IMG/VR virus record: IMGVR_UViG_3300020733_000013
Location: 1 to 64,000 of that record
From: a virus
Strand: one strand, 5' to 3'
Length of the DNA: 64,000 bases
Shown: in pieces, positions 7,467 through 63,174 of the stretch
Numbering within the stretch: position 1 is the first letter of the stretch
How the letters are laid out: the number at the start of each line of letters is the position of its first letter
Notes under the pieces: model-generated
What the model saw: the letters and a program-made list of their open reading frames with translations, nothing else
What the model was told of the DNA's origin: nothing
Database searches by the model: none
Made by a program: the position numbers and the translations under genes

Positions 7467-7712
7467 ATGCAAAAGAAAACTCGCAGCCTCTTAGAGGAAT
7501 TAGAAGCGATTGGACAAAATCGTGACACTAAGCACATTATTGAGAGCCGTGCAAATAACATCATTACCAGCGCTATTAATTTGTTGGAAATGATTAACAA
7601 GCATTATGACTCAGAGAAAGCTGCCATCCTAGAACGCAAATTATTAAATGCTATCAAAGCACGAGATACTAGTAGATTTTCAAACAGTGTGAGGAAAACT
7701 GATGAAAATTAA
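7467..7712 (+). CDS. Hypothetical late protein
   Basis: AGGA RBS, late promoter, 81 aa. Confidence 0.75.
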   Translation: MQKKTRSLLEELEAIGQNRDTKHIIESRANNIITSAINLLEMINKHYDSEKAAILERKLLNAIKARDTSRFSNSVRKTDEN

Positions 7713-24486: not shown

Positions 24487-27400
24487 ATGGCATTAAATTC
24501 ACCAGGCGTACAAGTAACGATTATTGACCAAAGTCAATACTTACCTGCAGCCTCAAATTCAGTTCCTCTAATCTTATTGGCAACTGCACAGAACAAAGCA
24601 GACCCGACAGGAACAGCAGTAGCCGCAGCGACAACAGCCGCTAACGCAGGAAAATTATATCAATTAACAAGTCAACGTGACTTGGCAACACTATACGGAA
24701 ACCCATTCTTCTATAAAACTTCTACCGGTACACCAATTCATGGTTACGAGTTAAACGAATATGGATTGTTAGCAGCATGGTCATTGTTAGGTGTTACAAA
24801 CGCTTGCTATGTATTACGTGCTGATATCGACTTGTCAAGTCTAGTTGGTACATTAAGTCGTCCAGACGGTGCACCAGCAGACGGAACATATTGGTTAGAC
24901 ACAACAAACAGTTCATGGGGTATCTATGAATTTAATGCTACAACTGGTCAGTTTGTTCTAAAAACTCCTACTATCTTTGATAAAGGTATTTCAGAAGTTG
25001 GAACAAATGGTTACCCATATGACACATTAGGTAACATCGGTGATTACGCAGTTGTTCCAAATATGTTAACAAGTTTACCAATCGGTAAGAGCACATATTT
25101 CTATAAAAATAGATTTAATGCATGGGTAGAAATTGGTAGTGCAGCATGGCAAAGTTCATTGTTCACAGTATTGGGAACAAAATCAACTCCAACTCCAGCG
25201 ATCACTGCAAACAGTGATAGTTTCTCTATTACTTACAATTCATTTGTAGTTACTATTGCTCCAACACAAGCAACAGTTGATAACATTGTTACACAAATTA
25301 ATAATGCAGGTATCGCTGAATTGTCTGCTACAAATGTTAACGGTAAGTTAGGAATTAGTATATCTTCATACAGAACAAATGCATCAGTTGCACTAGCTGA
25401 TGTATCAGGTACATTGTTAGAAAAATTAGGTATCACACCTGGAACATATTATGCACCTGACATTGTTTACGGTGACAGTGCAAGTATGCCACTATGGTCA
25501 TCAAGTCAACAGTATCCACACCCAACAGGTTCTGTTTGGATTAAAACAAGCACAGCAGGTAATGGGTTAGATTTGATTGTAAACAAATATTCAGCAGCAA
25601 ATGCAGGATGGTCATCAGTCAATACTCCAGCATATACAAGTGCAGATGCAGCAAATGCAGACCTTGATAGTGTTGGTGGTAAAAATATCCCAGCAGGAAG
25701 CTTAATTGCCCTATACCAAACACGCAGAGGTTCATTAAGTCCTGTAGTTATCTATGAAAGACTAGCATCAGGTGCAACACTAATTACAGGTGGAACAAGT
25801 AATATTACTATCCCTTCAGGAAAAGTCATTACAGTTGCAGTAAGCCAACCCGGAACATTGACAGATGTTGTCTATTCATTTACAACTTCTGGTGGTGATT
25901 TATCATCATTCATCACAGATTGGACACACGCTAATATTGTTTACACTTCTATAACAGAAACGACTGATGGATCTGTACAATTGAGCCATGCATTAGGTGG
26001 TGAGATTTATGTTCACGATTATCAACCATCCGGTGGTAGTGGTGCAGGACAATCTGCAGGTGTATTGTCAGCATTAGGTTTAACTCCAGAAATGAGTATG
26101 AATGTTACTTATGACAAACCTTTCTTATACACAACAACTGTAACAAGCACATCAAATTCAAACAATGGCGGAAGTGCAACTGGTTCTGTTACATTGAATG
26201 TAACTTCATCAGGATTATACTATAGCATCATCAGTACTAACAGCACTGCAACTACTGGTTTTCAAGCAGGTGATACAGTTACATTCAGCGGTGCAGTATT
26301 AGGTGGCACAACACCAGCAAATGATTTAGTATTGAATGTGTTAACAGTTGATGGATCAGGTAAGATTCTTACTTTAGCATATGCTTCAGGTACACCAAGA
26401 GTTAACTATCTAACACACTTGTCAAACTGGGTAATGTTAGATTACACTGCTAACGAAGGTGCTCCAGCAGCATTACCACTCAACAGTACAAATTGGTACT
26501 ATAGCACTGCTACTGAAGTTGACATTATGGTTCAACAAGGTGGTGCTTGGAAAGGTTACGGAAACGTAGCATATGATAGTAATGGTCATCCAGCACATAC
26601 TGGTTCTAACATGACAGACCCAGCAGGTGTAATTATGAGTGCAACAGCTCCAACTACACAAAGTGATGGAACAACAGCAGTTGCATATGGTGACTTATGG
26701 TTAGACACGAGTGACCTAGAAAACTATCCACTAATCTATCGTTGGCAGTCAGTTAACGGTTACGACCAATGGGTCTTAATCAACAATGCAGATCACCATT
26801 CAAGTTCTGGTATTGTATTCGCTGACGCACGTTGGGGCAAAAATAGTAACGTTGACCCAGTCAACGATCCTATCCCAACAATTGCGGGTCTAATGACAAG
26901 TAACTATGTTGACTTAGACGCCCCTAATCCAGCACTATATCCACAAGGTATTTTGTTGTTTAACACACGCCGTTCAGGTTATAACGTTAAGAAGTTTACA
27001 ACAAATTACTTTACAGCTAAGAATTTCCAAACAGGTAGCTTACCACTAGTAAGTTACACATGGGTAACAGAAGGTGGGTTGAAAGAAGACGGTTCAGCAT
27101 ACATGGGTCGTAAAGCACAACGTAATCTAGTTGTACAAGCGATGAAAGCAGCACTTGATACTAACGTAACAATCCGTGAAGAAGATAACTTCTTTAACTT
27201 GATTAGTTGCCCAGGATATCCTGAATTGCAACCAGATATGGTTACATTGAACAATGACCGTAACAATACAGCTTACATCATTGGTGACACACCATTGCGC
27301 TTGAAAGACCAAGCAACTGACATTACTAACTGGGCTAATAACACAGTTGGTGCTACAGAGTCAGGTGAAGATGGTTGGGTAACACGTGATGAATATTTGG

Positions 27401-28047
27401 GTGTATTCTACCCAAGTGGCATCACAACAGATTTGTCAGGCGCCCCTGCAGTTGTCCCAGCAAGTCACATGATGTTGCGTACATTCTTACGTAATGACAC
27501 AATCGCTTATCCTTGGTTAGCAGCAGCCGGTACACGCCGTGGTACAATTGACAATGCTACAAACATTGGATACCTAGATGCAGCAACAGGTGAGTTTGTA
27601 ACTGTTAAGAACCGTATGGCAATACGTGATGTATTATATACAAATCAAATCAACCCAATGGCATACTTCACTGGAATTGGTTTGTTGAACTATGGTAATA
27701 AGAGTTCATTTGCTTCACAGTCAGCATTAGATAGAACAAACGTAGGTCGCTTAGTCGCTTACATTCGTCAACAACTACAAATTGCTGCTCGTCCATTCGT
27801 ATTTGAACCAAACGATGCATTAACACGTAGTCAATTGGCAGGTGTGATTCAATCATTATTTGTCGATTTAGTTGCGAAACGTGGTCTATATGATTACATT
27901 GTAGTTTGTGATGAATCAAACAACTATGCAGCACGTATTGATAGAAATGAATTATGGGTAGACGTTGCAATTGAGCCAGTAAAAGCGGCTGAGTTCATCT
28001 ACATCCCGGTTCGTATTGTTAATACAGGATCACTAGCAGCAGCATAA
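24487..28047 (+). CDS. Tail sheath protein (gp18-like), large
   Basis: SPGVQVTIID N-terminus; C-terminal WLAAAG.RRG, LY.NQINP, FEPND, IEPVKAAEFIYI. Confidence 0.93.
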   Translation: MALNSPGVQVTIIDQSQYLPAASNSVPLILLATAQNKADPTGTAVAAATTAANAGKLYQLTSQRDLATLYGNPFFYKTSTGTPIHGYELNEYGLLAAWSLLGVTNACYVLRADIDLSSLVGTLSRPDGAPADGTYWLDTTNSSWGIYEFNATTGQFVLKTPTIFDKGISEVGTNGYPYDTLGNIGDYAVVPNMLTSLPIGKSTYFYKNRFNAWVEIGSAAWQSSLFTVLGTKSTPTPAITANSDSFSITYNSFVVTIAPTQATVDNIVTQINNAGIAELSATNVNGKLGISISSYRTNASVALADVSGTLLEKLGITPGTYYAPDIVYGDSASMPLWSSSQQYPHPTGSVWIKTSTAGNGLDLIVNKYSAANAGWSSVNTPAYTSADAANADLDSVGGKNIPAGSLIALYQTRRGSLSPVVIYERLASGATLITGGTSNITIPSGKVITVAVSQPGTLTDVVYSFTTSGGDLSSFITDWTHANIVYTSITETTDGSVQLSHALGGEIYVHDYQPSGGSGAGQSAGVLSALGLTPEMSMNVTYDKPFLYTTTVTSTSNSNNGGSATGSVTLNVTSSGLYYSIISTNSTATTGFQAGDTVTFSGAVLGGTTPANDLVLNVLTVDGSGKILTLAYASGTPRVNYLTHLSNWVMLDYTANEGAPAALPLNSTNWYYSTATEVDIMVQQGGAWKGYGNVAYDSNGHPAHTGSNMTDPAGVIMSATAPTTQSDGTTAVAYGDLWLDTSDLENYPLIYRWQSVNGYDQWVLINNADHHSSSGIVFADARWGKNSNVDPVNDPIPTIAGLMTSNYVDLDAPNPALYPQGILLFNTRRSGYNVKKFTTNYFTAKNFQTGSLPLVSYTWVTEGGLKEDGSAYMGRKAQRNLVVQAMKAALDTNVTIREEDNFFNLISCPGYPELQPDMVTLNNDRNNTAYIIGDTPLRLKDQATDITNWANNTVGATESGEDGWVTRDEYLGVFYPSGITTDLSGAPAVVPASHMMLRTFLRNDTIAYPWLAAAGTRRGTIDNATNIGYLDAATGEFVTVKNRMAIRDVLYTNQINPMAYFTGIGLLNYGNKSSFASQSALDRTNVGRLVAYIRQQLQIAARPFVFEPNDALTRSQLAGVIQSLFVDLVAKRGLYDYIVVCDESNNYAARIDRNELWVDVAIEPVKAAEFIYIPVRIVNTGSLAAA

Positions 28048-49123: not shown

Positions 49124-49951
49124 ATGAGTGACTATTATCAAACCCTCGGGGTAGCAAAAAACGCTACCCCTGAAGACATTAAAAAAGCATATCGCAGAAT
49201 GGCTGGCATTCACCATCCAGACAAGGGTGGTGATACTGCACAGTTTCAAAAGATTCAAGAGGCATACGAAACCCTCTCTGATCCACAAAAACGTCAACAA
49301 TACGATAATCCAAATCCATTTGGTCATGGTCAAATGCCTGGTGGATTCCCCGGTGGAATGCATGGCTTTCCCGGTGGATTCAGTTTCCAAATGGGTGGAT
49401 TTGGTATGGACGACATTTTTGGACAAATGTTTGGTCATCCAGGACAACGCGGTAGACCACAACAACCTAGCTATCGTACTATAGTTTGGTTAACACTTGA
49501 ACAAGCATACAATGGCGAAGAGCAAATGTTAAACTTCCAAACACCTGGATTAGGTCAACAAACGGTTAAACTGTCAGTGCCCAAAGGCATAGATGATGGA
49601 GCAACACTGCGTTATGATAACCTAATCAAAGACAGTATCTTAATCGCTGAATTTAGAATTCAACCACATGCTAAGTTCCAACGTGATGGTATGAATCTAC
49701 ATTCGGTACATGATATCAGTGTACTAGATTTGATTGTGGGTACAACCATTAAGTTTAAAACTATTTCGGGTAAAGAACTTGATGTTACAGTAAAACCAGT
49801 AACACAACCCGGTAGTTCACTACGCATTGCCGGCGAAGGTATGATAAATGACAGGGGAGCAGGTGACCAATTTATATTGTTGAAACCATTTATTCCTGAT
49901 AGAATTGACTCTCGTATAACTGATAGCATTTTGCAATCAAAACAAAAGTAA
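49124..49951 (+). CDS. dnaJ: DnaJ/CbpA-like co-chaperone (class B, no Zn finger)
   Basis: DYYQTLGV, HPD, G/F-rich linker, C-terminal domain. Confidence 0.93.
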   Translation: MSDYYQTLGVAKNATPEDIKKAYRRMAGIHHPDKGGDTAQFQKIQEAYETLSDPQKRQQYDNPNPFGHGQMPGGFPGGMHGFPGGFSFQMGGFGMDDIFGQMFGHPGQRGRPQQPSYRTIVWLTLEQAYNGEEQMLNFQTPGLGQQTVKLSVPKGIDDGATLRYDNLIKDSILIAEFRIQPHAKFQRDGMNLHSVHDISVLDLIVGTTIKFKTISGKELDVTVKPVTQPGSSLRIAGEGMINDRGAGDQFILLKPFIPDRIDSRITDSILQSKQK

Positions 49952-49973
49952 ATACCATTTTAAGGAAGCACTA

Positions 49974-52244
49974 ATGCACCCAGAAATCGAAGCCATCATT
50001 GAACATGCAATTGAATTGGCTAAGTCAAAAAGCCATCAATATTGTACAGTAGAGCACTTGTTACTAAGCCTAGTATCACATGCTCCCTTTAAGAAAGTGT
50101 TAGACTCTTATGGAGTTGACACTGAAATGATGACTAAGGAAATTGACGTATACTTAAATGGGTTACAAGCAATTACAGTAACACTAGGTCCCGGACAAGA
50201 GATTCAACCACGTAAAACAAATAGTTTGGAACGTGTTACAAACCGTGCAGTAGCACAAACATTGTTCTTGGGTCGTAAACAAGTTACAACTATTGACCTT
50301 TACTTGAGCATTTCAAGCGAAGCAAATAGTCATGCACATTATTTCTTGTTGAAATATGGCATTGAGAAAAGTCAATTTGTACCTTACTGGCAAAAGAATT
50401 ACAAGAACGAAGGTGCTCTTGTACGATTAAGCAACGAACAAGCAGACGAAATCTTAGAAGAATACACAACAAACTTGACTGATTTGGCTCGTCAGCATAA
50501 ACTAGAACCAATGATCGGTCGTAGCCAAGAAGTTGATGACATTGTAAACGTATTGGCTAAACGTTTCAAAAGCAACGTGTTACTAGTTGGTGATCCAGGT
50601 GTAGGTAAAACTGCTATTGTCGAAGGTATGGCTCAAATGATTGCAGAAGGTAACGTGCCTGAGTTCTTAGTTGGTCACGAAGTTTACAGCTTGGAAATCG
50701 GTAGCTTACTTGCTGGTAGTAAATATCGCGGTGACTTTGAAGAAAAGGTCAAAGCAGTCATTGAAGCACTTAACACCAAGAAACAAACTATCTTGTTTAT
50801 TGACGAAGCACATACAATGCAAGGTGCAGGTTCAAGTTCTCAAAGTGGTCCAGACTTTGCAAACATGATTAAGCCTGCAATTACAAAAGGTACATTGAAA
50901 GTTATTGCAAGTACTACTTGGGAAGAGTACTATGAGAGTTTTGAGAAGGATCGTGCATTAATGCGTAGATTCTATCGTGTCTCAGTAGATGAACCAAATC
51001 GTGATTCAACAGTTCGCATTTTAAGTGGCTTAAGTGGTCGTTTGGATGACTTCCATAGTGTTAAGATCACACCCGAAGCGGTTGAAGCAGCAGTTGACAG
51101 TGCTACACGTTACATGCATGACCGTAAAAATCCTGATAAATCTATTGACTTATTAGATGCAGCTTGTGCTAAACAACGTGTATTAGGTAACAAAGACGCA
51201 CAAATCACTAAAGAATTGATTTACGAGCAAGTTGAACGTATCTCTGGAGTACCAGCAGATAAACTCAGTAACGACAACAACGAACGTATCACAAACCTTG
51301 AGTCTAATATCAAAGACAAATTGTACGGTCAAGAGGAATCAGTTAGTAAAGTACTTGACCGTATATATGTCTCGTTTGCAGGTATCGGTAGTCAAACTAA
51401 ACCACTTGCAAGTTTCTTATTCTTGGGCCCAACTGGTACAGGTAAGACTGAACTGGCTAAGCAATTGAGCAAGAACTTAGATATGCCATTACTCAAATAT
51501 GATATGAGCGAGTATTCAGAGAAGTTCAATGTTAGTTCATTGCTTGGTGCGCCTCCTGGATATGTTGGTTATGGTGAAAGTAGCTTAGGTGGTGGTAAAC
51601 TTATCAATGACTTGAGTAAGAATCCACATGCTATTCTATTGTTTGATGAAGTTGAAAAAGCTCACCCAGATATCTTTAACATTTTCTTGCAATTACTTGA
51701 CGAAGGTCGTGTAACAGGAACTAATGGTAAAGAAGTCAATGCTAAAAACTGTATAATTATCATGACCAGTAACTTGGGTAGTAGTGACAGCGAACGTGCA
51801 GTAATTGGTTTTGGTAGTACTGAACGTACGGGTGATGATGAAAAAGCATTGAAGGACTTCTTCAAGCCTGAATTCAGAAACCGTATTGACTTGATTACTA
51901 AGTTCAACAAACTTGACAATCTTGCAATTAAGAAAGTGGTTATCAAGTTTACTGACGAGTTAAAGAAAGCATTGAAGGATACACAAGATATCGTGTTGAC
52001 TTTAACAGAACCAGTAGTTGATTACTTAGCAGAACAGGGCTACGATAGTAAGATGGGCGCACGTCCTCTTGCACGTAAAATTGATGAACTAATTCGTGTT
52101 CCATTGAGTAAGAAGATTCTTTTTGAACGTATTAGAAGTGCAAATATTACTGTAGTGATGAATGACGGTAAAGTTGATTTTGAAGTACATCAAAAAATGA
52201 TTGCAGAAGTAGGCGAAGATGGCATTATTAAAATCAGCAACTAA
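49974..52244 (+). CDS. clpA: ClpA-like AAA+ unfoldase
   Basis: Clp N domain, two Walker A motifs (GVGKT, GTGKT), PPGYVG, IGF ClpP-docking loop, no ClpB middle domain. Confidence 0.9.
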   Translation: MHPEIEAIIEHAIELAKSKSHQYCTVEHLLLSLVSHAPFKKVLDSYGVDTEMMTKEIDVYLNGLQAITVTLGPGQEIQPRKTNSLERVTNRAVAQTLFLGRKQVTTIDLYLSISSEANSHAHYFLLKYGIEKSQFVPYWQKNYKNEGALVRLSNEQADEILEEYTTNLTDLARQHKLEPMIGRSQEVDDIVNVLAKRFKSNVLLVGDPGVGKTAIVEGMAQMIAEGNVPEFLVGHEVYSLEIGSLLAGSKYRGDFEEKVKAVIEALNTKKQTILFIDEAHTMQGAGSSSQSGPDFANMIKPAITKGTLKVIASTTWEEYYESFEKDRALMRRFYRVSVDEPNRDSTVRILSGLSGRLDDFHSVKITPEAVEAAVDSATRYMHDRKNPDKSIDLLDAACAKQRVLGNKDAQITKELIYEQVERISGVPADKLSNDNNERITNLESNIKDKLYGQEESVSKVLDRIYVSFAGIGSQTKPLASFLFLGPTGTGKTELAKQLSKNLDMPLLKYDMSEYSEKFNVSSLLGAPPGYVGYGESSLGGGKLINDLSKNPHAILLFDEVEKAHPDIFNIFLQLLDEGRVTGTNGKEVNAKNCIIIMTSNLGSSDSERAVIGFGSTERTGDDEKALKDFFKPEFRNRIDLITKFNKLDNLAIKKVVIKFTDELKKALKDTQDIVLTLTEPVVDYLAEQGYDSKMGARPLARKIDELIRVPLSKKILFERIRSANITVVMNDGKVDFEVHQKMIAEVGEDGIIKISN

Positions 52245-52972: not shown

Positions 52973-53134
52973 ATGGCAAAGATTATTGAGAACGTACTAG
53001 TTGTTAAAGTCAGCAAACTAGTAAAAGAGGGAGCGGATGAGAATCTGATTCCACAAGACACCCAACAAGCATTAGAACAAGTCGCCCAAGAATTATTGGG
53101 TGATTCCGTCATTGTAGAAGTGGAACGAGCATAA
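52973..53134 (+). CDS. Small late protein
   Basis: Late promoter and GGAG RBS. Confidence 0.7.
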   Translation: MAKIIENVLVVKVSKLVKEGADENLIPQDTQQALEQVAQELLGDSVIVEVERA

Positions 53135-53472
53135 TGGCACAAAGTTCAGCATATCAATTGTTGCCACAAACAGCATACAAACAAGTTTCACAAGTGATTG
53201 GTGATAAAGTTCCTGCCGCCGCATATTATATCAAGCAAAACAATATGCAGACATTCACATGGAATCTTACAACATTTACCGGTCTATTACAAATTCAAGC
53301 AACACTAGCAGATAATCCAGGCAATGGTGACTGGTTCACTATCTATAACCTATCAGGTAATCAATTAACTCAAACTAGCTTTACTAATATATCTGGTAAC
53401 TTTGTTTGGGTTCGTGCTGTAATCAATAACTTTGGTTTTGGTGTTGTTCAAAGTGTTAAGGTTAGCTATTAA
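53134..53472 (+). CDS. Small beta-rich structural protein
   Basis: FTGLLQIQATL..DWF..GNFVWVRA; resembles the C-terminal domain of 4186-4956. Confidence 0.6.
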   Translation: MAQSSAYQLLPQTAYKQVSQVIGDKVPAAAYYIKQNNMQTFTWNLTTFTGLLQIQATLADNPGNGDWFTIYNLSGNQLTQTSFTNISGNFVWVRAVINNFGFGVVQSVKVSY

Positions 53473-56400
53473 TGAAAATTGCCGCACTATTAGAAAGTAA
53501 ACAACCATTGATGGAAGGTGGTAATTTAAGTGTGGGCAAACATGAAGCAGAACACTTAGATTTGAAAGTTACAAAACGTAGCTACATGGTTCCCAAACTC
53601 AATGAACTATTAAACGCAATCAATAAAGCATTCAATGTAAAACACAAGGCTCCATTATGGAGTAGTGAATTATTGTCAAGCGGTAAGTTTTTGAGTGGTA
53701 GTAGTTTACATTTCTTTGATGTTGCGGGTATCAGTGATGATACATTCTTTGCTAAGAAGCCAACTGTAGGTGATATTGATACCATGGTTGACAAACGTTT
53801 GGAATTCATTTTACAAGAATTCTTAACAAGTGCAACAAATAAACAAATTGGTCCTGCAAAATTGCTAGGATTTCAAAAAGGTAACGAACAATATTCTGCA
53901 TTGTTTGAGTTACAAGACCCACCCGTAAAAGTACAAATTGACTTTGAATTTGTTTCTTTTGAGAATGGAATGCCTAGCGACTGGGCAAGATTTAGTCATA
54001 GCAGTTCATGGGATGATATCCAACAAGGTGTTAAGGGTGTATTTCATAAGTGGTTGATTCAATCATTGACTACACTAACCAACAAGCAATTCCTGTTACG
54101 TAAAATGATCGGTCGTGGTGCAATGCGTAAAGAAGAGGACATCCCTACAACAGACAACATGTATAGTTTTGCCGTGTCTAGTAAAGAAGGTGGCGGATTA
54201 CGTGCTAAGTACGAACCAGTATTAAATCCTAACACAAACAAACCATTAGTGATTAAGGGTTTGCCTGTAATGAAAGCAGCACCTGCAGCTGGATACGAAC
54301 AAAACATTGGTAAGATTTTTTCAACTATACTAGGCAAACGTCTTGACCCTAAACAAATGCAAGCTATCTCTAATAACTTCTGGTCATTCACTGGGTTAGT
54401 ACAGTTGATGGGTAAGATATTATCACCAGAAGATAAACAAACAGTATTGCTCGGTTTCTTAAACAAAACAATCGGTAAAGGTAGTCAAGGTCTTTACAAG
54501 AACAATCCAGAAAAAGATATCAGTGAAAAAACAACAGCAATCAATTATCTAGTTAAAACATTAGGACTACAATTGCCACCTGAGTTCAATCAAATGATGG
54601 CTGACTATAGAAAAAACTATAAGATGACTGAACTATCAGAAGCAGGTCCTAACTATAAGCGTCAAGGTATCCCACACATTTACAAGCCTGGCTCAACAGT
54701 TGAATTGAAAGATAATGAGTTCATTGAGTTATGTAAAGAAATCATGGCTGATGGTGGTAAACTTGAAGGTGTACCAATCAACTTGAAAGTTGATGGTGCA
54801 GGCATCAGATTTGGTAAAGACCAAAATGGTCGTCCATTCTTTATGACAAGTAAAGTTACAGAACCTAAATACATTGAGAATTTTGGTGACTTTGAAAAGT
54901 ATGGTCGTAGTGTTGGACAAGACGAAGAACGATTGAACTTTACTAAGCAATATGACAATGCATTAAAGACAATATTGACTGCTCCATTTATGAAAGTTAT
55001 CCCTAGTGATACTATCGTACAAGCAGAAATGATGTATACTCCAATGGCTCAACAAGAGAATGGCGGCTTGAAGTTTGTTAACATCCCTTATGATCCTAAA
55101 AAGTTGGGTAAAGAGATGACTCTTGTACCATTCATGTTCAAACAGTTTAGCACTGGACAAGTTCGTCCTGACAGTCAAAAGATTAAAGAAGCACTATTAA
55201 AAACAAGCAATAGTAAAATTAAAATGGTTAACAACAACTTGCAACATAAAGGTATTGATGTTGCTAAGATTGTTAGTCCTATTGTTAAAAACGCAGATAC
55301 ATTAAGTGCTGCGGTTGCTACTCGTGGAACAAATCCTACAAAAGAAAAAGCAAAAGCTATCTTGTCTCAAGCTAGACAACAACTAAGCAATGCTATTATC
55401 AATGGACCTATTCCAGGTAAAGATCAATTGGGTGACATGATTGAAGGTCTTGTTATCAATATGCCTAGTGGTTTACTAGCTAAAGTAACAAGCACAGACA
55501 TGGCAAACAAGATGGCTACTAAAATGGCTGCTCGTCAACCAGTCAAAGGTAATCAACGCCCTGCTGTAGTTGCTGTGGGCAGTGCGATTGGGCATGTAGG
55601 ACATCAACAATTATTCAACCATGCAATCGCTCTAGCAAAACAAGTTGGTGGTCAACCTTACATGTTTATAGGACCTGCAGAAGGTAAAGATGATCCTATT
55701 CCACCAAGTGTTAAAGTTGAAACATGGCATAAGTTATACCCACAACTAGCGAGTAACATATCAACTGTTAGTCATGAGGGCGGTACATTACTACAGAAAA
55801 TCAAACATGAGTTGATTAATCCTCAACCAGGTAAACCACCAAGATATGATACAATTTATATTGTTGTTGGTAGTGATAGACATGACATGGCTGAAAGTTG
55901 GAGCAAATCTCTAATGAAAGCAGTTAACAAGTTCCCTGGATATGAAGGTGTTAAAGTTGTTCCACATGTAACGTCACGTGATAAGAATGAAGGTGGTACA
56001 GGTATAAGCGGAACATTACTACGTAGTGTTTTATCAGACAAAACAAAAACTCCAGAACAGCAATTTGAAGTTTGGAATCATGCTTACAATAGTGGTAACT
56101 ATGGTGCTCAGAAACTACCGGCAGAGTGGATTCAGCACTTAATGAATATTGCTCGTAAGGGTATGGGAATGCAAACTATGAATGAGTCAAGAATCTTTAA
56201 TCCAAAGTCATTAGTTAATGTATATTATGTTTCCCCTAATGGCAATCGTCATAAGTTAGCAAAAAGCATTCCGTATGATTTAGTTGAGAAACTATTACAT
56301 GCATTGAAAGTTAAAAAGAACATTGACATTCACATGGATGATGTTGAAGTTCGTCCTGCTGATCCCTCACAATATACAGTGAGCACCAGTCAGTTTGATG

Positions 56401-57623
56401 AAGGTTCAGAAGAAGCATTACAATATGCAACTAAAGCACATGCTGGGCAAACTCGTTCAGGTGGTGATCCATATATCAGTCACCCAGTTCGTGTAGCTAA
56501 TCATATCAAGCAATTTAAAAAATCACATAACCTAGATGCATTAATTAGTGCAGCATACTTACATGATACAATTGAAGATACTGACACAACACAAGAAATC
56601 TTACACGATTTGTTTGGCGGATTAGTTGCTAGTCTTGTAATGGAACTTACAAGCGATCCAGAACAAATTAAAAAGATAGGTAAGGCTCAATATCTAGCAC
56701 ACAAAATGGCTGCAATGAGTAGCTATGCACTAGTTATCAAACTTGCTGATAGATTAGATAATGTCAAAGATATCACTACTGCTAAGACTCCTGAATGGAG
56801 ACACAAATATGCAACTGAAACTAATCACATCTTAGATTACATTGAAAAGCATCGTGCTTTGTCAGGTACCCATACTAAATTGATTGATATGATTCGTGCT
56901 AAGTTGGCTGAGATTGACCAACCACAGCAAGATGTGGCGGAAGGCAAGAACATGCCAGACTTAGAACATGTTGGCGAAAGAGTAGTATCTGTTATGGATG
57001 CTGAACGCAGACTTGCCCATGGAGATAGAATATTTGCGTTCCACGAAATGGATGAAGAGCCGTTTGAGATTCACAATGTCGGTGAGTTGGCAGGATATGA
57101 TACTGAACAGTTATTGGCAGTACCACAAAGTGTAGCGGAAGAAGCAGACGAACAAAAAAGCTCAAATGTCTTTCAATCTATGGGTAGTCAATTAATTGCT
57201 ATGGGTAATGATGCTGATAAAATTAAAAGGCATGACCCATCAGTTATTGAAAAAGCAATTGATGCTAAATTAGAAAAAATCAATGATCCAAAACTTACAC
57301 ATGTTACGAAATCCTTTTTGAGTAAAGTTGTTAAGTTCAATAGAAGTAATCCAAAAACAATGGCAGCAATATTTGGATTTACCTTCTCTATTATTGCTAG
57401 AGTATCAATGCAATTTAGTCATAATATGGGACTTAGTCCAACACAAGCAACATTACTAATAGAAGCATTATTGCCTACATTGGGTAATTTCTTGGGTTAC
57501 ATTGTCAATGGGTTTAGTGTAAAAGACAGTGTACAAGCTGGATTGATTGCTGGAACAATTGGCGTCGGCGGCACCTTGGCTGCAAGCGGTGCATTGTCTG
57601 AAGATTATTTAGACGAAAAATAA
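53472..57623 (+). CDS. Multidomain polyprotein: Pol-beta NTase + ligase-like + HIGH nucleotidyltransferase + RelA/SpoT-type HD hydrolase + membrane domain
   Basis: GSS..GDID..QIDF; KVDG..EG; HVGH..VGSDR..ISGT.LR; AH.GQ.R..PYISHP..LHDTIEDT..KLADRLDN. Confidence 0.78.
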   Translation: MKIAALLESKQPLMEGGNLSVGKHEAEHLDLKVTKRSYMVPKLNELLNAINKAFNVKHKAPLWSSELLSSGKFLSGSSLHFFDVAGISDDTFFAKKPTVGDIDTMVDKRLEFILQEFLTSATNKQIGPAKLLGFQKGNEQYSALFELQDPPVKVQIDFEFVSFENGMPSDWARFSHSSSWDDIQQGVKGVFHKWLIQSLTTLTNKQFLLRKMIGRGAMRKEEDIPTTDNMYSFAVSSKEGGGLRAKYEPVLNPNTNKPLVIKGLPVMKAAPAAGYEQNIGKIFSTILGKRLDPKQMQAISNNFWSFTGLVQLMGKILSPEDKQTVLLGFLNKTIGKGSQGLYKNNPEKDISEKTTAINYLVKTLGLQLPPEFNQMMADYRKNYKMTELSEAGPNYKRQGIPHIYKPGSTVELKDNEFIELCKEIMADGGKLEGVPINLKVDGAGIRFGKDQNGRPFFMTSKVTEPKYIENFGDFEKYGRSVGQDEERLNFTKQYDNALKTILTAPFMKVIPSDTIVQAEMMYTPMAQQENGGLKFVNIPYDPKKLGKEMTLVPFMFKQFSTGQVRPDSQKIKEALLKTSNSKIKMVNNNLQHKGIDVAKIVSPIVKNADTLSAAVATRGTNPTKEKAKAILSQARQQLSNAIINGPIPGKDQLGDMIEGLVINMPSGLLAKVTSTDMANKMATKMAARQPVKGNQRPAVVAVGSAIGHVGHQQLFNHAIALAKQVGGQPYMFIGPAEGKDDPIPPSVKVETWHKLYPQLASNISTVSHEGGTLLQKIKHELINPQPGKPPRYDTIYIVVGSDRHDMAESWSKSLMKAVNKFPGYEGVKVVPHVTSRDKNEGGTGISGTLLRSVLSDKTKTPEQQFEVWNHAYNSGNYGAQKLPAEWIQHLMNIARKGMGMQTMNESRIFNPKSLVNVYYVSPNGNRHKLAKSIPYDLVEKLLHALKVKKNIDIHMDDVEVRPADPSQYTVSTSQFDEGSEEALQYATKAHAGQTRSGGDPYISHPVRVANHIKQFKKSHNLDALISAAYLHDTIEDTDTTQEILHDLFGGLVASLVMELTSDPEQIKKIGKAQYLAHKMAAMSSYALVIKLADRLDNVKDITTAKTPEWRHKYATETNHILDYIEKHRALSGTHTKLIDMIRAKLAEIDQPQQDVAEGKNMPDLEHVGERVVSVMDAERRLAHGDRIFAFHEMDEEPFEIHNVGELAGYDTEQLLAVPQSVAEEADEQKSSNVFQSMGSQLIAMGNDADKIKRHDPSVIEKAIDAKLEKINDPKLTHVTKSFLSKVVKFNRSNPKTMAAIFGFTFSIIARVSMQFSHNMGLSPTQATLLIEALLPTLGNFLGYIVNGFSVKDSVQAGLIAGTIGVGGTLAASGALSEDYLDEK

Positions 57624-57673: not shown

Positions 57674-58651
57674 ATGGCAACAAAGAAAACAACTACAACT
57701 GCTACACCAGCAGTTAAGACAACTAAAGCTCCTGCAAAAGCTAAAGCAGAAGCAAAAACAGTACCAGTCGAAAAGGTACAAGAAATTGCTGAACAAGCAC
57801 AACAAGAACAAAAACCCGCAGATGGTCAAGTTCAAGTTAACGTAGATTTTCTACGCACAACTAAAGTACATATTGCTATGCCATGTTATGGTGGTATGTT
57901 GACTGAATCTACATTCATGTCATTCATCAAGTGGGCAAATACTGCTCGTCAATTGGGTATTGATTGGACATTAGAAACAATGGTCAATGAGTCACTTATC
58001 AGTCGTGCTCGTAACACACTAACAGCAAAGTTCTTAGAACAAGAAGGTGCAACACACTTGTTCTTTGTTGATGCAGATATTGGTTGGGAACCATGGCATT
58101 TGTTAGTTCTATTGAACCGTGATGTTGATGTTATCGGTGGATTGTACCCAATGAAAACAATGCCAATCAAATGGGTTGTTAATGGATTTGAAGGTGCAGA
58201 AGAAGGTACAGATGGCTTACAAGAAGTAAGTAAAGCAGGTACAGGTTTCTTGTTGATGAAACGTCATGTATTTGAGAAAATGAACAGTCACCCAGCTGTT
58301 AAACCATACAAAAATGATATCGGTTTAGATCCAAAATATGACCAACACTTGAAAACATACTTTGACACAGCAGTTCGTCAAGGTCGTTACTACAGTGAAG
58401 ACTGGACATTCTGTGAAAACTGGCGTGATATTGGTGGTAAAGTTTGGGTTGACAAACGTGTATTATTGCGTCATAGTGGTTCATATGTATTCTGCATGGA
58501 AAATCAGAACTATTTGATGGATACAATTGGTCCTATGTATGTTCAACAACAGCAACAAGTAGCACAACAGCAACAAGCACCAGCAGTTGCTACCCCTGTG
58601 GCTACACAAAACAAAGCTCCTGTAAAGAAAGCAGCAACACGTAAGAAGTAA
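57674..58651 (+). CDS. GT-A fold glycosyltransferase with K/A/T-rich tails
   Basis: IAMPCYGG, SLISRARN, FVDAD, GTGFLL, SEDWTFC. Confidence 0.82.
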   Translation: MATKKTTTTATPAVKTTKAPAKAKAEAKTVPVEKVQEIAEQAQQEQKPADGQVQVNVDFLRTTKVHIAMPCYGGMLTESTFMSFIKWANTARQLGIDWTLETMVNESLISRARNTLTAKFLEQEGATHLFFVDADIGWEPWHLLVLLNRDVDVIGGLYPMKTMPIKWVVNGFEGAEEGTDGLQEVSKAGTGFLLMKRHVFEKMNSHPAVKPYKNDIGLDPKYDQHLKTYFDTAVRQGRYYSEDWTFCENWRDIGGKVWVDKRVLLRHSGSYVFCMENQNYLMDTIGPMYVQQQQQVAQQQQAPAVATPVATQNKAPVKKAATRKK

Positions 58652-58672: not shown

Positions 58673-58699
58673 AAGGCTATCTATATGGTAGCCTTTTTT
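58673..58699 (+). terminator. Intrinsic terminator
   Basis: AAGGCTA...TAGCCTT followed by a T run. Confidence 0.75.
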
Positions 58700-59613: not shown

Positions 59614-62600
59614 ATGGCAATATATAATAAGAATCCGCCAGCAGTTGATGCATCAGCAGCCCCAGAATTGAGTGGTGTAGTTCATCACGTTAATCCTCCT
59701 ACCGAGCTAGTTAGCAATCGTATTGACACAACATACCTAGATAGAACAACAGAAATTATCAATAATCCGGGTGGGAATAATAATCAAATACAATATGCTT
59801 ATGGTGGACAGTTCAAGGGTGATAATGGTTTTGTATTTGATCCAAACACCAAGTCAGTATATCTACGTGGTAACTTAAACTTAGGTGGATACTTAAAGGG
59901 TAAAATCTATACTAACCCATTTAACTTTCATTTGACAGGTGGTGTTGCTGATTCTGTATTGACAACCGATGGCACTGGAAACTTGTCATGGGGTAACGTA
60001 CAGACTATTCTAAATTATGGCAACGCAAACGTTGCATCATACTTAGCAAGTTATAGTGGTAACTCAACTGCCAATAATTCTCAGATAAACAATTTATCAA
60101 TAACAAATAGTTTATCAATCAATGGTGGCGGCACACTATCATTAGATGTTAGCCAACTACAATTAGCAGGTGGAACAAACGGACAATATCTAAAAACATA
60201 TGGTAATGGTACCGTTGCTTGGTCAACCGATATTGATTTAGAACAAACTAATGTAACATTAACTGGATCAACTATCTCATTAGATAGTGCAGGTAATAGT
60301 GGTGTTTGGGGTGGAAGTATCCCTAATGCAAATGTAATAGGTGGATTTGTAAACAATGATGGTTCCAATAACGCATTAATGACATTTAGCACCAATGGTT
60401 CAAATGTAATGTCTATTAACGTAGATGGTAGTATTTTTGCGGGAGGGGCATTTGATACATTAGATAATTTAGACTCGGCAAGTAGTGGTTGGGTCGTTGC
60501 AGGTAATGGTCTTGCACTAACTAATAATGGAAGCAGAATCAAGTTCCATGACGGTACTACACAATATACAGCATATCCAGGTGTTGATGCAGTTATCAGT
60601 GAGAGTGATCCTGGCTTAGGCGATGGGCGTGTTTGGTTTAACAGTGTTGAAGGTCGTGCTTTTATAAAGTATAGTGGACAGTGGGTAGATATGAACCCAC
60701 AAATTGCACCTAATCCTGATTTAAATGCAAACTCAATTACATTTGAAGACGGTAGTGTATTAACTACGGGTAATATTCAGGGTAGTTCTTATAGTAATAG
60801 CAACGTAGCAAGTTATTTACCAACGTACACTGGTAATATTTCTGCAAACAATGTATTGTTATCAAGTACATTAGTTACTAGTTCAATTCAAGGTAATACG
60901 GGTCTTGTTATCAATTCAACTGATACAATGAACATGTTGGTTAATAATGTGAGTGGTATCGAAGTGACCGGTGGCTCAGTTGGTATATATGCTCAAAATA
61001 TATTGTCGTTACAATTCGATGGAGCCAACGCAGATTTTAGAAATCAACATGTTAATAATGTCAACTCACTTAATGTAAATGGAAACATTACAGGAAACTA
61101 CATTATTGGTAATGGTAGTCAACTAACAGATATAATTACATCTAATTTAACAAACACTACTCAAACGTTTGTACTTAACAATGATGGGTCGTTTGGTGTA
61201 AAAGATAGTGGTAGTGCGACTAACTTCAACCTTGACCAAACAACACCTAATATTGATTTAAGAACAAGTCATGGTACTGGTTTCTTTACATCAGCTTCTA
61301 CTATTACATTTAGAACCAATGGAGTTAAAAATTGGATTTTTGACGGTAGTGGTAACTTAAGTACTCAAGGTAGTATTAATCTTGGCGCAACACATGGTAA
61401 CATTGTTGTAGGTGATGCAACTCCTACAGGTTCGCCCGGCTTAAGTGCGTCTAGCAGTCTAACACTTACTGCAAACAGAGAAGGAACATCTACATGGATG
61501 GTCTTTGGTGCTGACGGTAACTTATCTTTACCCGGCAATTTGTCTTATGTTGGATCTGATTCTGCAAATATCATTGGATTTAACTCAGCTAATTTTGCAG
61601 GTAATTTAAGTGCTTCTAATATATATACCAACAACTATTATCTAGCTAACGGTGATCCATTACCGTTAGTATCAGGATCAAGTAATGTTACAACGACTGG
61701 TAATGTTACTGCAGGTAATGTAATTGCAGGTAACTTCAGTGGTAATGGTAGTCAATTGACACATATCAGTGGTGCAAACGTTGTTGGCACAGTAGCTAAT
61801 GCAAACTATGCTGTTTATTCAGGTACTGCTTATAGTGTGTCAGGAAGTAATGTCTCTGGTACAGTCGCTTTAGCAAGTCATGCCACTGTTGCTGATTCAG
61901 CAAATAGTGTATCAGGAAGCAATGTATCTGGTCCAGTAGCATTCGCAACAGTTGCTAATAGTGTAGCCGCTGCTAACGTATCTGGATTAGGTAACGTATC
62001 ATTAATTAATAAAGACGGTAATGCGAGCAATGTATTATATGGAAATGGTGTATTTGCTGCACCTGCACCAAGCTCTAGTTATAGTAACAGCAATGTAACA
62101 ACACTATTATCAAGTTTTGGTAGCAACACACTAGTAACAACAGGTAACGTAACCGCAGGATATTTCATTGGTAACGGTAGTCAATTAACTGGATTACCTG
62201 CAAGTTACGCAAATAGCAATGTTGCAACATACTTACCAACTTATACAGGTACATTACCAAACGTAGGGTCTATAACTGCTAATGGTGCTATTACTTCAAA
62301 TAATACAATCACTGGCGCTAATATAATTGCTAACGGAAATGTTACTGTCAACACACTATTGTTATATGGATCAAATGCTACACTATCCACTACAAATGGT
62401 AGTTCTGTACAGTTTGCTGGCAGAGTCAACTTTAACAATACTGGAACAAGTTTTGTTGCTAGCGGAAACGCCAACGTAAACGGTAGTTTAATAGTTGGAT
62501 CTAGTGTATCACTAAGCGGTAATCTTACATTGACTAATTCAGGATATATTACAACTACTAGCGGAACAAATGGTAACGTAAACATTGATCCTGATGGTAC

Positions 62601-63174
62601 AGGTAACGTAAACGTAACCGGTAATGTAATTATTAGCGGCTCAGTGACTGGTGGTGGAATTAGACAAACTACTGCAACATCAGCACCAAGTAGTCCTACT
62701 GTCGGCGACCAATGGTACAATAGTTCAACTGATGTATTGTATCAATATGTTAATGATGGTGTAAGTAGTTATTGGTTAGACATTGCAGGTCCAGGATACA
62801 GTAATCCACAAACCATTACCAAAGTATCTAATTTTGTAAATGCAGGTACATTTGTCACACTAGACAATATCAAAGCTACAGTAACAACAAGTGGTAATCG
62901 TGGATTAAGTTTATCCGGAGTATCGAGTTCGTTTACTGCTACAATAGGTGCTACTTATGCTGTAAGCGGTGGCACAGGTGGCTCAAGCACCAATGGTACA
63001 ACATCTATCACTACCACTCCTTCAACTGCTGCCTTTGGTTGGAACTTTACAGGTAATGGTGATATATCAACATACATTGTCACTGACACAACAAATAATA
63101 GAGCCTATCGCATTACATTGCAAATAGGCGGTGGCTACAACAATAACATGATTACAATTGAGAGGTTAATCTAA
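59614..63174 (+). CDS. Tail fibre protein
   Basis: Repeats YSNSNVASYLPTY, GNGSQLT, LTTDGTGNLSW, APSSPTVGDQWY. Confidence 0.78.
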   Translation: MAIYNKNPPAVDASAAPELSGVVHHVNPPTELVSNRIDTTYLDRTTEIINNPGGNNNQIQYAYGGQFKGDNGFVFDPNTKSVYLRGNLNLGGYLKGKIYTNPFNFHLTGGVADSVLTTDGTGNLSWGNVQTILNYGNANVASYLASYSGNSTANNSQINNLSITNSLSINGGGTLSLDVSQLQLAGGTNGQYLKTYGNGTVAWSTDIDLEQTNVTLTGSTISLDSAGNSGVWGGSIPNANVIGGFVNNDGSNNALMTFSTNGSNVMSINVDGSIFAGGAFDTLDNLDSASSGWVVAGNGLALTNNGSRIKFHDGTTQYTAYPGVDAVISESDPGLGDGRVWFNSVEGRAFIKYSGQWVDMNPQIAPNPDLNANSITFEDGSVLTTGNIQGSSYSNSNVASYLPTYTGNISANNVLLSSTLVTSSIQGNTGLVINSTDTMNMLVNNVSGIEVTGGSVGIYAQNILSLQFDGANADFRNQHVNNVNSLNVNGNITGNYIIGNGSQLTDIITSNLTNTTQTFVLNNDGSFGVKDSGSATNFNLDQTTPNIDLRTSHGTGFFTSASTITFRTNGVKNWIFDGSGNLSTQGSINLGATHGNIVVGDATPTGSPGLSASSSLTLTANREGTSTWMVFGADGNLSLPGNLSYVGSDSANIIGFNSANFAGNLSASNIYTNNYYLANGDPLPLVSGSSNVTTTGNVTAGNVIAGNFSGNGSQLTHISGANVVGTVANANYAVYSGTAYSVSGSNVSGTVALASHATVADSANSVSGSNVSGPVAFATVANSVAAANVSGLGNVSLINKDGNASNVLYGNGVFAAPAPSSSYSNSNVTTLLSSFGSNTLVTTGNVTAGYFIGNGSQLTGLPASYANSNVATYLPTYTGTLPNVGSITANGAITSNNTITGANIIANGNVTVNTLLLYGSNATLSTTNGSSVQFAGRVNFNNTGTSFVASGNANVNGSLIVGSSVSLSGNLTLTNSGYITTTSGTNGNVNIDPDGTGNVNVTGNVIISGSVTGGGIRQTTATSAPSSPTVGDQWYNSSTDVLYQYVNDGVSSYWLDIAGPGYSNPQTITKVSNFVNAGTFVTLDNIKATVTTSGNRGLSLSGVSSSFTATIGATYAVSGGTGGSSTNGTTSITTTPSTAAFGWNFTGNGDISTYIVTDTTNNRAYRITLQIGGGYNNNMITIERLI

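Follow-up and report, generated by a model that had tools for sequence, protein, structure and literature searches.

A large family of phage polyproteins with a fixed nucleotidyltransferase-ligase core, exchangeable cargo and a putative capsid-targeting leader

Why would a virus encode several nucleotide-handling enzymes as one giant chain, and does that chain stay whole? The question is raised by the first 64 kb (64,000 nucleotides, hereafter the window) of IMG/VR virus record IMGVR_UViG_3300020733_000013, a single viral contig of 75,890 bp, in which positions 53472-57623 of the (+) strand form one uninterrupted open reading frame (ORF) for a polyprotein of 1383 amino acids (~155 kDa). An original prediction, made from the letters of the window, had read this gene as a cleavable, virion-borne chain of four enzymes and as a candidate for an undescribed system. 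We find that its first three enzymes belong to a core that appears to be fixed across a large family, and that the remainder is cargo, seemingly swapped as cassettes at short linkers. Comparison of relatives makes it probable, in our judgment and with moderate confidence, that the precursor is targeted to the capsid, cut in the prohead and injected as a repair and counter-defence kit.

The source itself would appear to be a T4-related jumbo phage, judging by the myovirus tail encoded in the window, whose sheath protein is closest to those of Pseudomonas phage PA5oct and Agrobacterium phage Atu_ph07 (both T4-related jumbo phages). The contig is a fragment, representing ~22% of a genome (CheckV). 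No near-identical DNA was found in cultured phages, and the fused gene was found in no cultured phage.

All of the motifs and junctions named in the original prediction were recovered where it had placed them in the translated ORF. The N-terminus reads MKIAALLE↓SKQPLME↓GGN (arrows mark putative cuts after Glu), in agreement with the LLE/LME leader that had been described, and the junctions farther along are LSE↓A at residue 390, MNE↓S at 905, FDE↓G at 977, VAE↓G at 1157, VAE↓E at 1223 and LSE↓D at 1377. These divide the protein into the following parts, of which D1, D2 and D3 denote the core domains.

53472..53516 (+), residues 1-15: N-terminal leader resembling a capsid targeting sequence (CTS), with two L-x-E sites, the second of which abuts the first core residue
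53517..54641 (+), residues 16-390: D1, Pol-beta-fold nucleotidyltransferase (NTase) with a helical C-terminal part, ending at a conserved L-S-E↓A
54642..55547 (+), residues 391-692: D2, RNA-ligase-like covalent adenylyltransferase with a helical insert and without an oligonucleotide-binding (OB) domain
55548..56171 (+), residues 693-900: D3, HIGH-motif NTase (HxGH plus an ISxTxxR-like motif)
56172..56186 (+), residues 901-905: core-cargo linker QTMNE↓S
56187..56402 (+), residues 906-977: small cargo module without a family match, ending FDE↓G
56403..56942 (+), residues 978-1157: HD hydrolase of the RelA/SpoT homologue (RSH) type, Mesh1-like or like small alarmone hydrolases (SAH), ending QDVAE↓G
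56943..57140 (+), residues 1158-1223: small acidic cargo module between QDVAE↓G and QSVAE↓E
57141..57602 (+), residues 1224-1377: hydrophobic module with ~3 membrane-span-like segments near 1297-1375, ending ALSE↓D
57603..57623 (+), residues 1378-1383: C-terminal tail DYLDEK and stop codon

Conservation across the family is confined to residues 16-900 of the window protein (D1 + D2 + D3) and falls to background past ~900. A search of 5.8 billion proteins yielded at least 615 clusters (90% identity) of 760-2400 residues in which the core is fused; D1, in both fused and stand-alone forms (~350-400 amino acids), was found by profile in 712 clusters at 50% identity among 1.84 billion representatives. 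Relatives share residues 1 to ~900 at 50-64% identity and diverge completely beyond; in 14 members an extra domain of ~120 residues stands between leader and core. The cargo of relatives includes cytidine deaminase, a zeta-toxin/AAA_33 kinase, a ParB-like nuclease, LysM with tail lysozyme and SLT, phage lysozyme, amidoligase, GP88, DUF6934 and a second Pol-beta NTase, and the HD_4 hydrolase of the window protein is a rare cargo in the family. Whether relatives encode the domains separately or with different cargo, a matter raised by the original prediction, is thereby answered in both respects, since split D1 and D2 genes are found as well and the cargo differs. The claim of an undescribed system fares less simply: the NTase - RNA ligase - HIGH NTase core is undescribed in both the polyvalent-protein survey (PMC5512222) and the jumbo-phage survey, but it is no one-off, being instead the fixed core of a large family.

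The joints between cargo modules are themselves recognizable. In the cargo of 144 members, no tripeptide ending in Glu is as enriched as VAE (85 distinct contexts versus 13.4 expected, 6.3-fold), which stands within a linker consensus Q-[G/P]-V-A-E-[G]; the acidic module of the window protein is flanked by QDVAE↓G and QSVAE↓E. One relative on another contig, P0072 (906 amino acids), carries an entire cargo block (small module, hydrolase, acidic module, membrane module and tail) that is 97-100% identical to that of the window protein, behind a D3-like front that is ~35% identical, and the identity jumps directly past the Glu of the core-cargo linker MNE↓S. P0072 also has an extra unit of ~190 residues inserted between QDVAE↓G and QGVAE↓G. 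The jump in identity and the insert, both located at linkers, indicate that cargo moves as cassettes at these points, and on these sequence comparisons we propose that the family combines a fixed core with cassettes exchanged at linkers.

A partial ORF of the same contig, lying past the window (74235-75890), starts MKINE↓T and contains three QGVAEG linkers of identical DNA, between which stand unrelated modules of ~62-64 amino acids; it is probably a second cassette polyprotein.

Which enzymes make up the core? Sequence-profile searches of D1 and D2 against the PDB returned nothing meaningful. Because neither domain has sequence relatives in the PDB or Pfam, we built alignments of both from IMG/VR loci, predicted both structures with AlphaFold2 (AF2) and then searched the models against PDB folds; fold searches alone identified the two domains. 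D1 carries the motifs GSS (76-78), DID (101-103) and QIDF (155-158), in which G76, S77, S78, D101, D103 and D157 are invariant in alignments of 21 and 41 sequences. Its model (predicted local distance difference test [pLDDT] 92.8) matches only Pol-beta-fold NTases, with Foldseek probability 1.00 and middling Z scores of 6.4-8.0, among them TUT7 (Z 8.0, root mean square deviation [rmsd] 3.3, 103 residues), Pol beta (Z 7.5, rmsd 4.5, 179 residues) and PolX of African swine fever virus (ASFV; Z 6.4, 162 residues).

D2 carries the motifs of a covalent adenylyltransferase, namely KVDG (439-442), QAE (517-519) and IEGLV (657-661). Residues K439, D441, G442, R446, E519, E658, G659 and K671 are invariant in the family alignments, so that K439-V-D-G (motif I), E519 (motif III) and E658-G659 (motif IV) are kept without exception. 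The 50 fold matches listed for the model (pLDDT 94) are ATP-dependent RNA and DNA ligases only, with RNA ligases leading: Naegleria Rnl5 (NgrRnl; Z 11.5, rmsd 3.3, 191 residues), T4 Rnl1 (Z 10.1) and T4 Rnl2 (Z 9.8), followed by DNA ligases at Z ~8.4. No OB-like strands follow motif V; the model ends in a helix at about its residue 300, and D3 comes directly after. The Pfam RNA ligase families PF09414 and PF09511 gave no proper match, one of 39 members reaching PF09414 below threshold (E 0.015).

We favor RNA, most plausibly tRNA, over DNA as the substrate of this core, on the basis of the structural models and of analogy: D2 looks most like RNA ligases and is without an OB domain, and the constant pairing of NTase with ligase mirrors the pairs formed by RlaP and RNA ligase. 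RlaP NTases, which act together with RNA ligases, extend damaged RNA 3' ends by one or two nucleoside monophosphates ahead of ligation (PMC7824862; bioRxiv 10.64898/2025.12.29.696909), and RlaP-RNA ligase repair pairs occur in jumbo phages (PMC7824862). Several results pull the other way. The RlaP family PF10127 was unmatched at E <= 0.1 in 41 D1 sequences and at E <= 1 in the window polyprotein, and none of five phage records, related or taken for comparison, contained RlaP; neither domain could be placed in a curated family by Pfam scans (41 D1 and 39 D2 sequences); ligase motif V keeps its first Lys but has Thr in place of the second in every member (K671-V-T673); and more residues of D1 align with DNA polymerases of family X than with NTases specific for RNA.

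Because D1 is not RlaP, aligns at greater length with family X, and has a precedent in a viral PolX-ligase fusion, DNA gap repair is a serious rival. The kit would then be packaged and processed in the same way, with D1 acting as a family-X-like gap filler and D2 sealing nicks in the injected genome, at breaks left by packaging, restriction or nicking. The family X enzymes (Pol beta, lambda, mu, TdT and ASFV PolX) fill the Foldseek list and align with D1 through palm and thumb over 162-179 residues, whereas terminal uridylyltransferases align over just ~100; DNA ligases also match D2 (Z ~8.4); and PgVPolX is a working PolX-ligase fusion in base excision repair (PMC5537341). Yet the PolX alignments, at Z 6.4-7.5, lie within the gray zone stated by the tool itself, neither an 8-kDa nor a helix-hairpin-helix (HhH) DNA-binding module is recognized in D1, and a PDB profile search found no PolX match to D1 at the level of sequence. 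The best matches of D2, moreover, are RNA ligases (Z 11.5-9.7), with no OB domain ahead of D3, and the hydrolase cargo points to conflicts over RNA or nucleotides. We consider DNA repair possible but, taken as a whole, doubtful, and keep RNA as the preferred substrate in what follows.

The third core domain is a NTase with the motifs HVGH (708-711), VGSDR (799-803) and ISGTLLR (845-851), the last of which reads GGTGxSFTxLR in the family; G707, H708, G710, H711 and R851 are invariant across it. D3 matches phrog_3041 (cytidyltransferase) at E 2e-14 and CTP_transf_like clusters in the Atlas search with a score of 0.95. Matches to FAD_syn are weak and below the cut-off in 41 of 43 members (best E 2.4e-5), and the match to RibF covers the HxGH region only (31 residues, E 3e-4). 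A role for this domain in restoring NAD, as had been suggested, finds no specific support.

Among all parts of the polyprotein, the hydrolase is the only one recognized by curated profiles. Its HD domain (residues 982-1120) matches Pfam HD_4 at E 7e-17 (62.1 bits against a cut-off of 27.2) and MESH1 (3nr1) at E 8e-17, with MESH1, Rel and SAH structures matched at E 1e-15. The segments HP..VA, LHDTIEDT and KLADRLDN align to the catalytic residues of MESH1 and Rel, and the catalytic HD, ED and DxxxN residues are kept in the alignment to MESH1. Fold, motif or profile thus bears out all four enzyme assignments of the original prediction. Phage SAH neutralize toxSAS (toxic small alarmone synthetase) toxins, and hydrolase antitoxins reverse the pyrophosphorylation of tRNA and nucleotides (PMC9712102); a counter-defense role for the hydrolase would fit this precedent.

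The other cargo modules are less readily named. The small module (906-977) has no family match in Pfam and PHROG profile searches, and is 97% identical in P0072 and 41% identical in another relative, P0014; the acidic module (1158-1223) is 98% identical in P0072. The hydrophobic module has hydropathy peaks at 1297, 1327 and 1357, and at least 13 family members have a homolog of it as their final cargo unit; an Atlas search with it gave scores of just 0.77 and was uninformative. Whatever their cargo, 84 of 171 distinct members end ..[VLM][TS]E[SN]xDYLEEK, a type of tail that was not found on other ORFs of the contig or of 80 related loci.

Does the chain stay whole? Comparison across relatives bears on this at the start of the core, where Glu stands directly before GGN in all 161 of the distinct family members with a leader, and where the P3 residue is Leu in 127, Ile in 19, Val in 12, Met in 2 and Phe in 1. 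The leaders are mostly 14-17 residues long and start M-[K/L/R]-[I/L]-x-[E/A/Q]-[L/I/V/F]-[L/F]. The enzyme does not need this Glu, given that leaderless homologs begin MGGN, including 37 stand-alone D1 representatives and the homologs of Xanthomonas phage X1 and Vibrio phage phiKT1024. Another 47 stand-alone representatives do have leaders, with Glu as the last leader residue in 45 and Leu or Ile at P3 in 44, and many of these resemble the T4 CTS (for example MKKFKQFLKE↓GGN, MKQFKNFLNE↓GGN and MMISFKRFLAE↓GGN). Where the core is split, both halves are tagged: locus L097 has MKSFKQFLNE↓GGN on D1 and MKTFKQFLTE↓S on the adjacent D2, and locus L094, which adjoins a gp23/scaffold/gp21/portal module, has MLISFGEFLNE↓GGN on D1 and MGFEKYLQE↓AEI on D2. 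The tags of split D2 proteins end where the fused protein has its conserved L-x-E↓A (LSE↓A at 390), a junction formed by low-confidence linker residues in both AF2 models. The corresponding tags of T4 itself (NC_000866) are MKTYQEFIAE↓A in ipII and ipIII and MKTFKEF in ipI; the cleavage motif of gp21 is L/I-X-E, and the CTS is the first ten residues of IPIII (PMC9026906, PMC3012670).

Putative machinery for such processing is encoded by relatives. Of five large related contigs (181-219 kb, 51-62% complete), three have genes for Gp23 and for a gp21-type protease (Peptidase_S77), the protease adjoining a scaffold in which at least ten [LIVMF]xE[AGS] sites occur and a capsid protein of Gp23 type with the N-terminus MSQLLES..EALLE↓GLQG..KYLAE↓S. 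The lysozyme and SLT cargo of relatives consists of peptidoglycan hydrolases, as expected of ejected proteins. A homolog of D1 has been detected in virions of Campylobacter phage vB_CcoM-IBB_35, whose gene 1-56 (HM246720.1, 39251-40417; 388 amino acids, 44,446 Da) has the N-terminus MKLSELMFILE↓GGN, retains DID and QIDFE and is matched by the D1 profile at E 1.9e-55; its product is among 38 virion proteins that were identified by ESI-MS/MS, with 17% coverage (PMC3322345 supplementary tables).

The capsid N-terminus in the head modules of relatives (loci L091-L093; MSQLLESRW..EALLE↓G) resembles the polyprotein leader (MKIAALLESK..LME↓G), a likeness that could reflect a shared mode of scaffold docking. 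Six other ORFs of the window have CTS-like leaders ending in Glu and are candidates for further packaged proteins; they start at 7702 (MKIKEVIIAE↓G), 22143 (MRASEFIVE↓Y), 31314 (MKSLRHYLME↓S), 32170 (MDFKSLLQSFDTLSE↓A), 47804 (MNKVLNE↓G) and 58732 (MNLKEFDE↓F).

The pathway that we consider probable would run as follows. The 15-residue leader would act as a T4-like CTS and bring the precursor into the prohead scaffolding core, where a gp21-type (Peptidase S77) prohead protease would cut after Glu at exposed L/I/V-x-E sites: LME↓GGN, LSE↓A, the two Q-x-V-A-E linkers and LSE↓DYLDEK, with MNE↓S and FDE↓G as less certain sites. Since no conserved Glu site separates them, D2 and D3 are predicted to form a didomain product that probably stays joined; consistent with this, one relative (P0121) begins MAKNALDE↓NAPNYKR and runs on through D3. 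The products would be D1, the D2-D3 unit, the small module, the HD hydrolase, the acidic module and the membrane module, and these pieces would be ejected with the DNA and act ahead of any phage gene expression. D1 might add missing nucleotides at damaged 3' ends of nucleic acid and D2 seal the break, while the hydrolase might remove (p)ppGpp, (p)ppApp or the 3'-pyrophosphate that toxSAS add to tRNA.

Against this pathway stand several observations. The number of [LIV]xE sites in the polyprotein is at chance (20 versus 17.2 +/- 3.6 in shuffles), so that what counts is where the sites lie and how well they are kept; with M or F at P3, MNE↓S and FDE↓G are non-canonical; the 75.9-kb contig of the window, a fragment ~22% complete, has no S77 protease or capsid gene; the T4 late promoter TATAAATA is not enriched (3 found versus 6.3 expected); the virion list of IBB_35 includes probable contaminants, for example an ExsB-like regulator; and homologous enzymes are leaderless in Xanthomonas phage X1 and in Vibrio phages, the X1 copies lying near replication genes, which indicates that the enzymes need no capsid to work. 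As for the packaged, protease-released kit of the original prediction, its general outline is supported by comparison (E↓GGN, CTS-like tags, S77 and gp23 genes, lysozyme and SLT cargo, and the IBB_35 protein), but not in every detail, because MNE and FDE depart from the motif and D2 appears to remain uncut from D3.

These same observations could be taken to mean that the protein is an unpackaged, cytoplasmic multi-enzyme fusion, serving RNA repair or nucleotide metabolism after infection, with a leader and Glu sites that are structural or coincidental. Such a view accommodates the leaderless homologs (the X1 copies stand beside primase/helicase and queuosine genes), the chance-level motif count, the lack of a late promoter in the scan, and the fact that the conserved neighbors are DnaJ-like and ClpA/B-like chaperones rather than head genes. 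It does not readily accommodate a pre-GGN site that is 100% conserved and at which leaderless forms have their start Met in place of the Glu, the T4 CTS-like decapeptide carried by each of the split D1 and D2 proteins, the lysozyme or SLT cargo in relatives, or the D1 homolog found in IBB_35 virions, and we regard it as improbable.

The leaderless X1 genes form a row (locus L081, 5773-9122) consisting of a D1-like NTase, a 334-amino-acid ORF, a D2-like ligase and a cytidylyltransferase-family gene, adjoining primase/helicase, a queuine tRNA-ribosyltransferase-like gene and a QueE-like gene. The 334-amino-acid ORF has sub-significant matches only and is possibly a NTase paralog, and the cytidylyltransferase-family gene showed no significant match to D3. 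The row indicates that these enzyme types recur together, packaged or not. At locus L094 (8887-9396) the gene after the stand-alone D2 encodes not a HIGH NTase but a calcineurin-like metallophosphoesterase of 169 amino acids, which could be an end-healing partner.

Injection need not imply repair. The NTases might instead be host-takeover effectors that nucleotidylylate host RNA, protein or small molecules and so shut host functions; Pol-beta NTases of polyvalent proteins have been proposed to modify proteins (PMC5512222), MenT toxins are among the weaker fold matches of D1, and some relatives carry a zeta-toxin-like kinase and deaminase as cargo. We hold this to be very unlikely: the constant pairing of NTase with ligase, seen also as neighboring genes in X1, L094 and L097, is a signature of end repair, and the hydrolase cargo removes a growth-arrest signal and does not impose one. 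Returning to the injected repair kit, a fuller version of it can be sketched that we put forward as speculation, and rather unlikely to hold in all its parts. A pre-made core injected to mend tRNA or other RNA, together with swappable cassettes, would disarm abortive-infection nucleases and toxSAS before the first transcript; the Q-G-V-A-E-G linkers, with their near-identical DNA, would serve as both protease sites and recombination joints; and the tail, DYLEEK, would provide one more signal for sorting or handling, which the ClpA/B-DnaJ pair might read.

The chaperones in question lie upstream, at 49124-52244 of the window, and comprise a DnaJ-type co-chaperone (J domain plus DnaJ_C) and a ClpA/B-like double-AAA+ protein of 756 amino acids. 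DnaJ-like and ClpA/B-like neighbors hold the same position in 44-54 of 80 related loci, and could be involved in handling so large a polyprotein. Also encoded upstream is a PHROG 'virion structural protein', with fibre-like giant ORFs downstream. Immediately before the polyprotein gene, a 112-amino-acid ORF (53134-53472; phrog_13657) overlaps its start by ATGA and is kept upstream in 44 related loci. Immediately after it, a 325-amino-acid protein (57674-58651; phrog_1574) has a Lys/Ala/Thr-rich N-terminus and is unusually conserved, being 87-94% identical where the polyprotein core is just ~60% identical, and a terminator-like hairpin (58673-58695) lies downstream of this ORF. With scans for sigma-70 promoters and terminators at background level, the late operon of the original prediction stays a suggestion. 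No tRNA genes were found in the window. Two ORFs (24487-28047, tail sheath; 59614-63174, fibre-like) both have exactly 1186 amino acids, but they are unrelated and agree in length by chance.

Most phage proteins known to be injected are inhibitors (IPI*), ADP-ribosyltransferases (Alt) or RNA polymerases. If the proposed reading is correct, that list would be extended by a nucleic-acid repair set with exchangeable counter-defense enzymes, and phages would pre-empt RNA-targeting and nucleotide-signaling immunity at time zero. D1 and D2 are two uncharacterized and unnamed enzyme families with invariant catalytic residues, and the family as a whole is a natural catalog of candidate anti-defense cassettes, many of them modules without a known family and all of them bracketed by recognizable linkers. 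The CTS-tagged and leaderless versions of the same enzymes (84 stand-alone D1 representatives) offer a ready comparison of the choice between packaging and expression in phages.

Several known systems share parts of this design. PgVPolX of Phaeocystis globosa virus (PMC5537341) likewise has a Pol-beta-like core fused N-terminally to a ligase; its ligase, however, is of the NAD-dependent DNA-ligase type, whereas D2 is ATP-type, RNA-ligase-like and without OB domain, and PgVPolX is not known as a processed virion protein and has neither a third NTase nor cargo. The pairs of RlaP and RNA ligase likewise show a constant link, in phages, between a Pol-beta-fold NTase and an enzyme of RNA-ligase type; unlike those pairs, the core of the polyprotein has no end-healing kinase or phosphatase, and its enzymes are fused and apparently packaged. 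The hydrolase shares HD_4 with all catalytic residues with MESH1 and the small alarmone hydrolases (including the phage SAH PaSpo, from Salmonella phage SSU5), and a stand-alone phage copy is found in BcepSaruman; here it is instead an internal cassette between putative protease sites, presumably delivered as protein. The ejection and inner-body proteins of phiKZ, 201phi2-1 and SPN3US are comparable in that many head proteins are cut after Glu at a short motif, by a gp21-related protease and with redundant propeptide sites (PMC9026906), but the motif in these phages is S/A/G-x-E, as against the hydrophobic P3 of the polyprotein (as in T4), and their E proteins do not correspond to this set of enzymes.

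We would ally the polyprotein most closely with two groups, the CTS-directed internal proteins of T4 and the polyvalent proteins. With T4 IPI, IPII, IPIII and Alt it shares a short N-terminal tag ending in hydrophobic-x-Glu (MK[ST]FKQFL.E in split relatives, MKTYQEFIAE in T4), a gp21-type protease and gp23-type capsid in the lineage, a variable payload behind a conserved tag, and a presumed counter-defense role at injection. The T4 proteins are single and small, whereas here six or seven units with putative internal cut sites are joined, among them the three enzymes of the fixed core and a membrane module, and the C-terminus carries the conserved DYLEEK tail; no enzyme of the polyprotein is known among the T4 head proteins. 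With the polyvalent proteins (Iyer et al. 2017, PMC5512222) it shares large size, shuffled conflict domains that include lytic transglycosylases and Pol-beta NTases, an architecture that varies among relatives, and a presumed entry into the host along with the DNA. The MuF, zincin peptidase, SNF2 and methylase domains of that group were not found in the polyprotein, which would moreover be delivered by a T4-type CTS and processed by the head protease.

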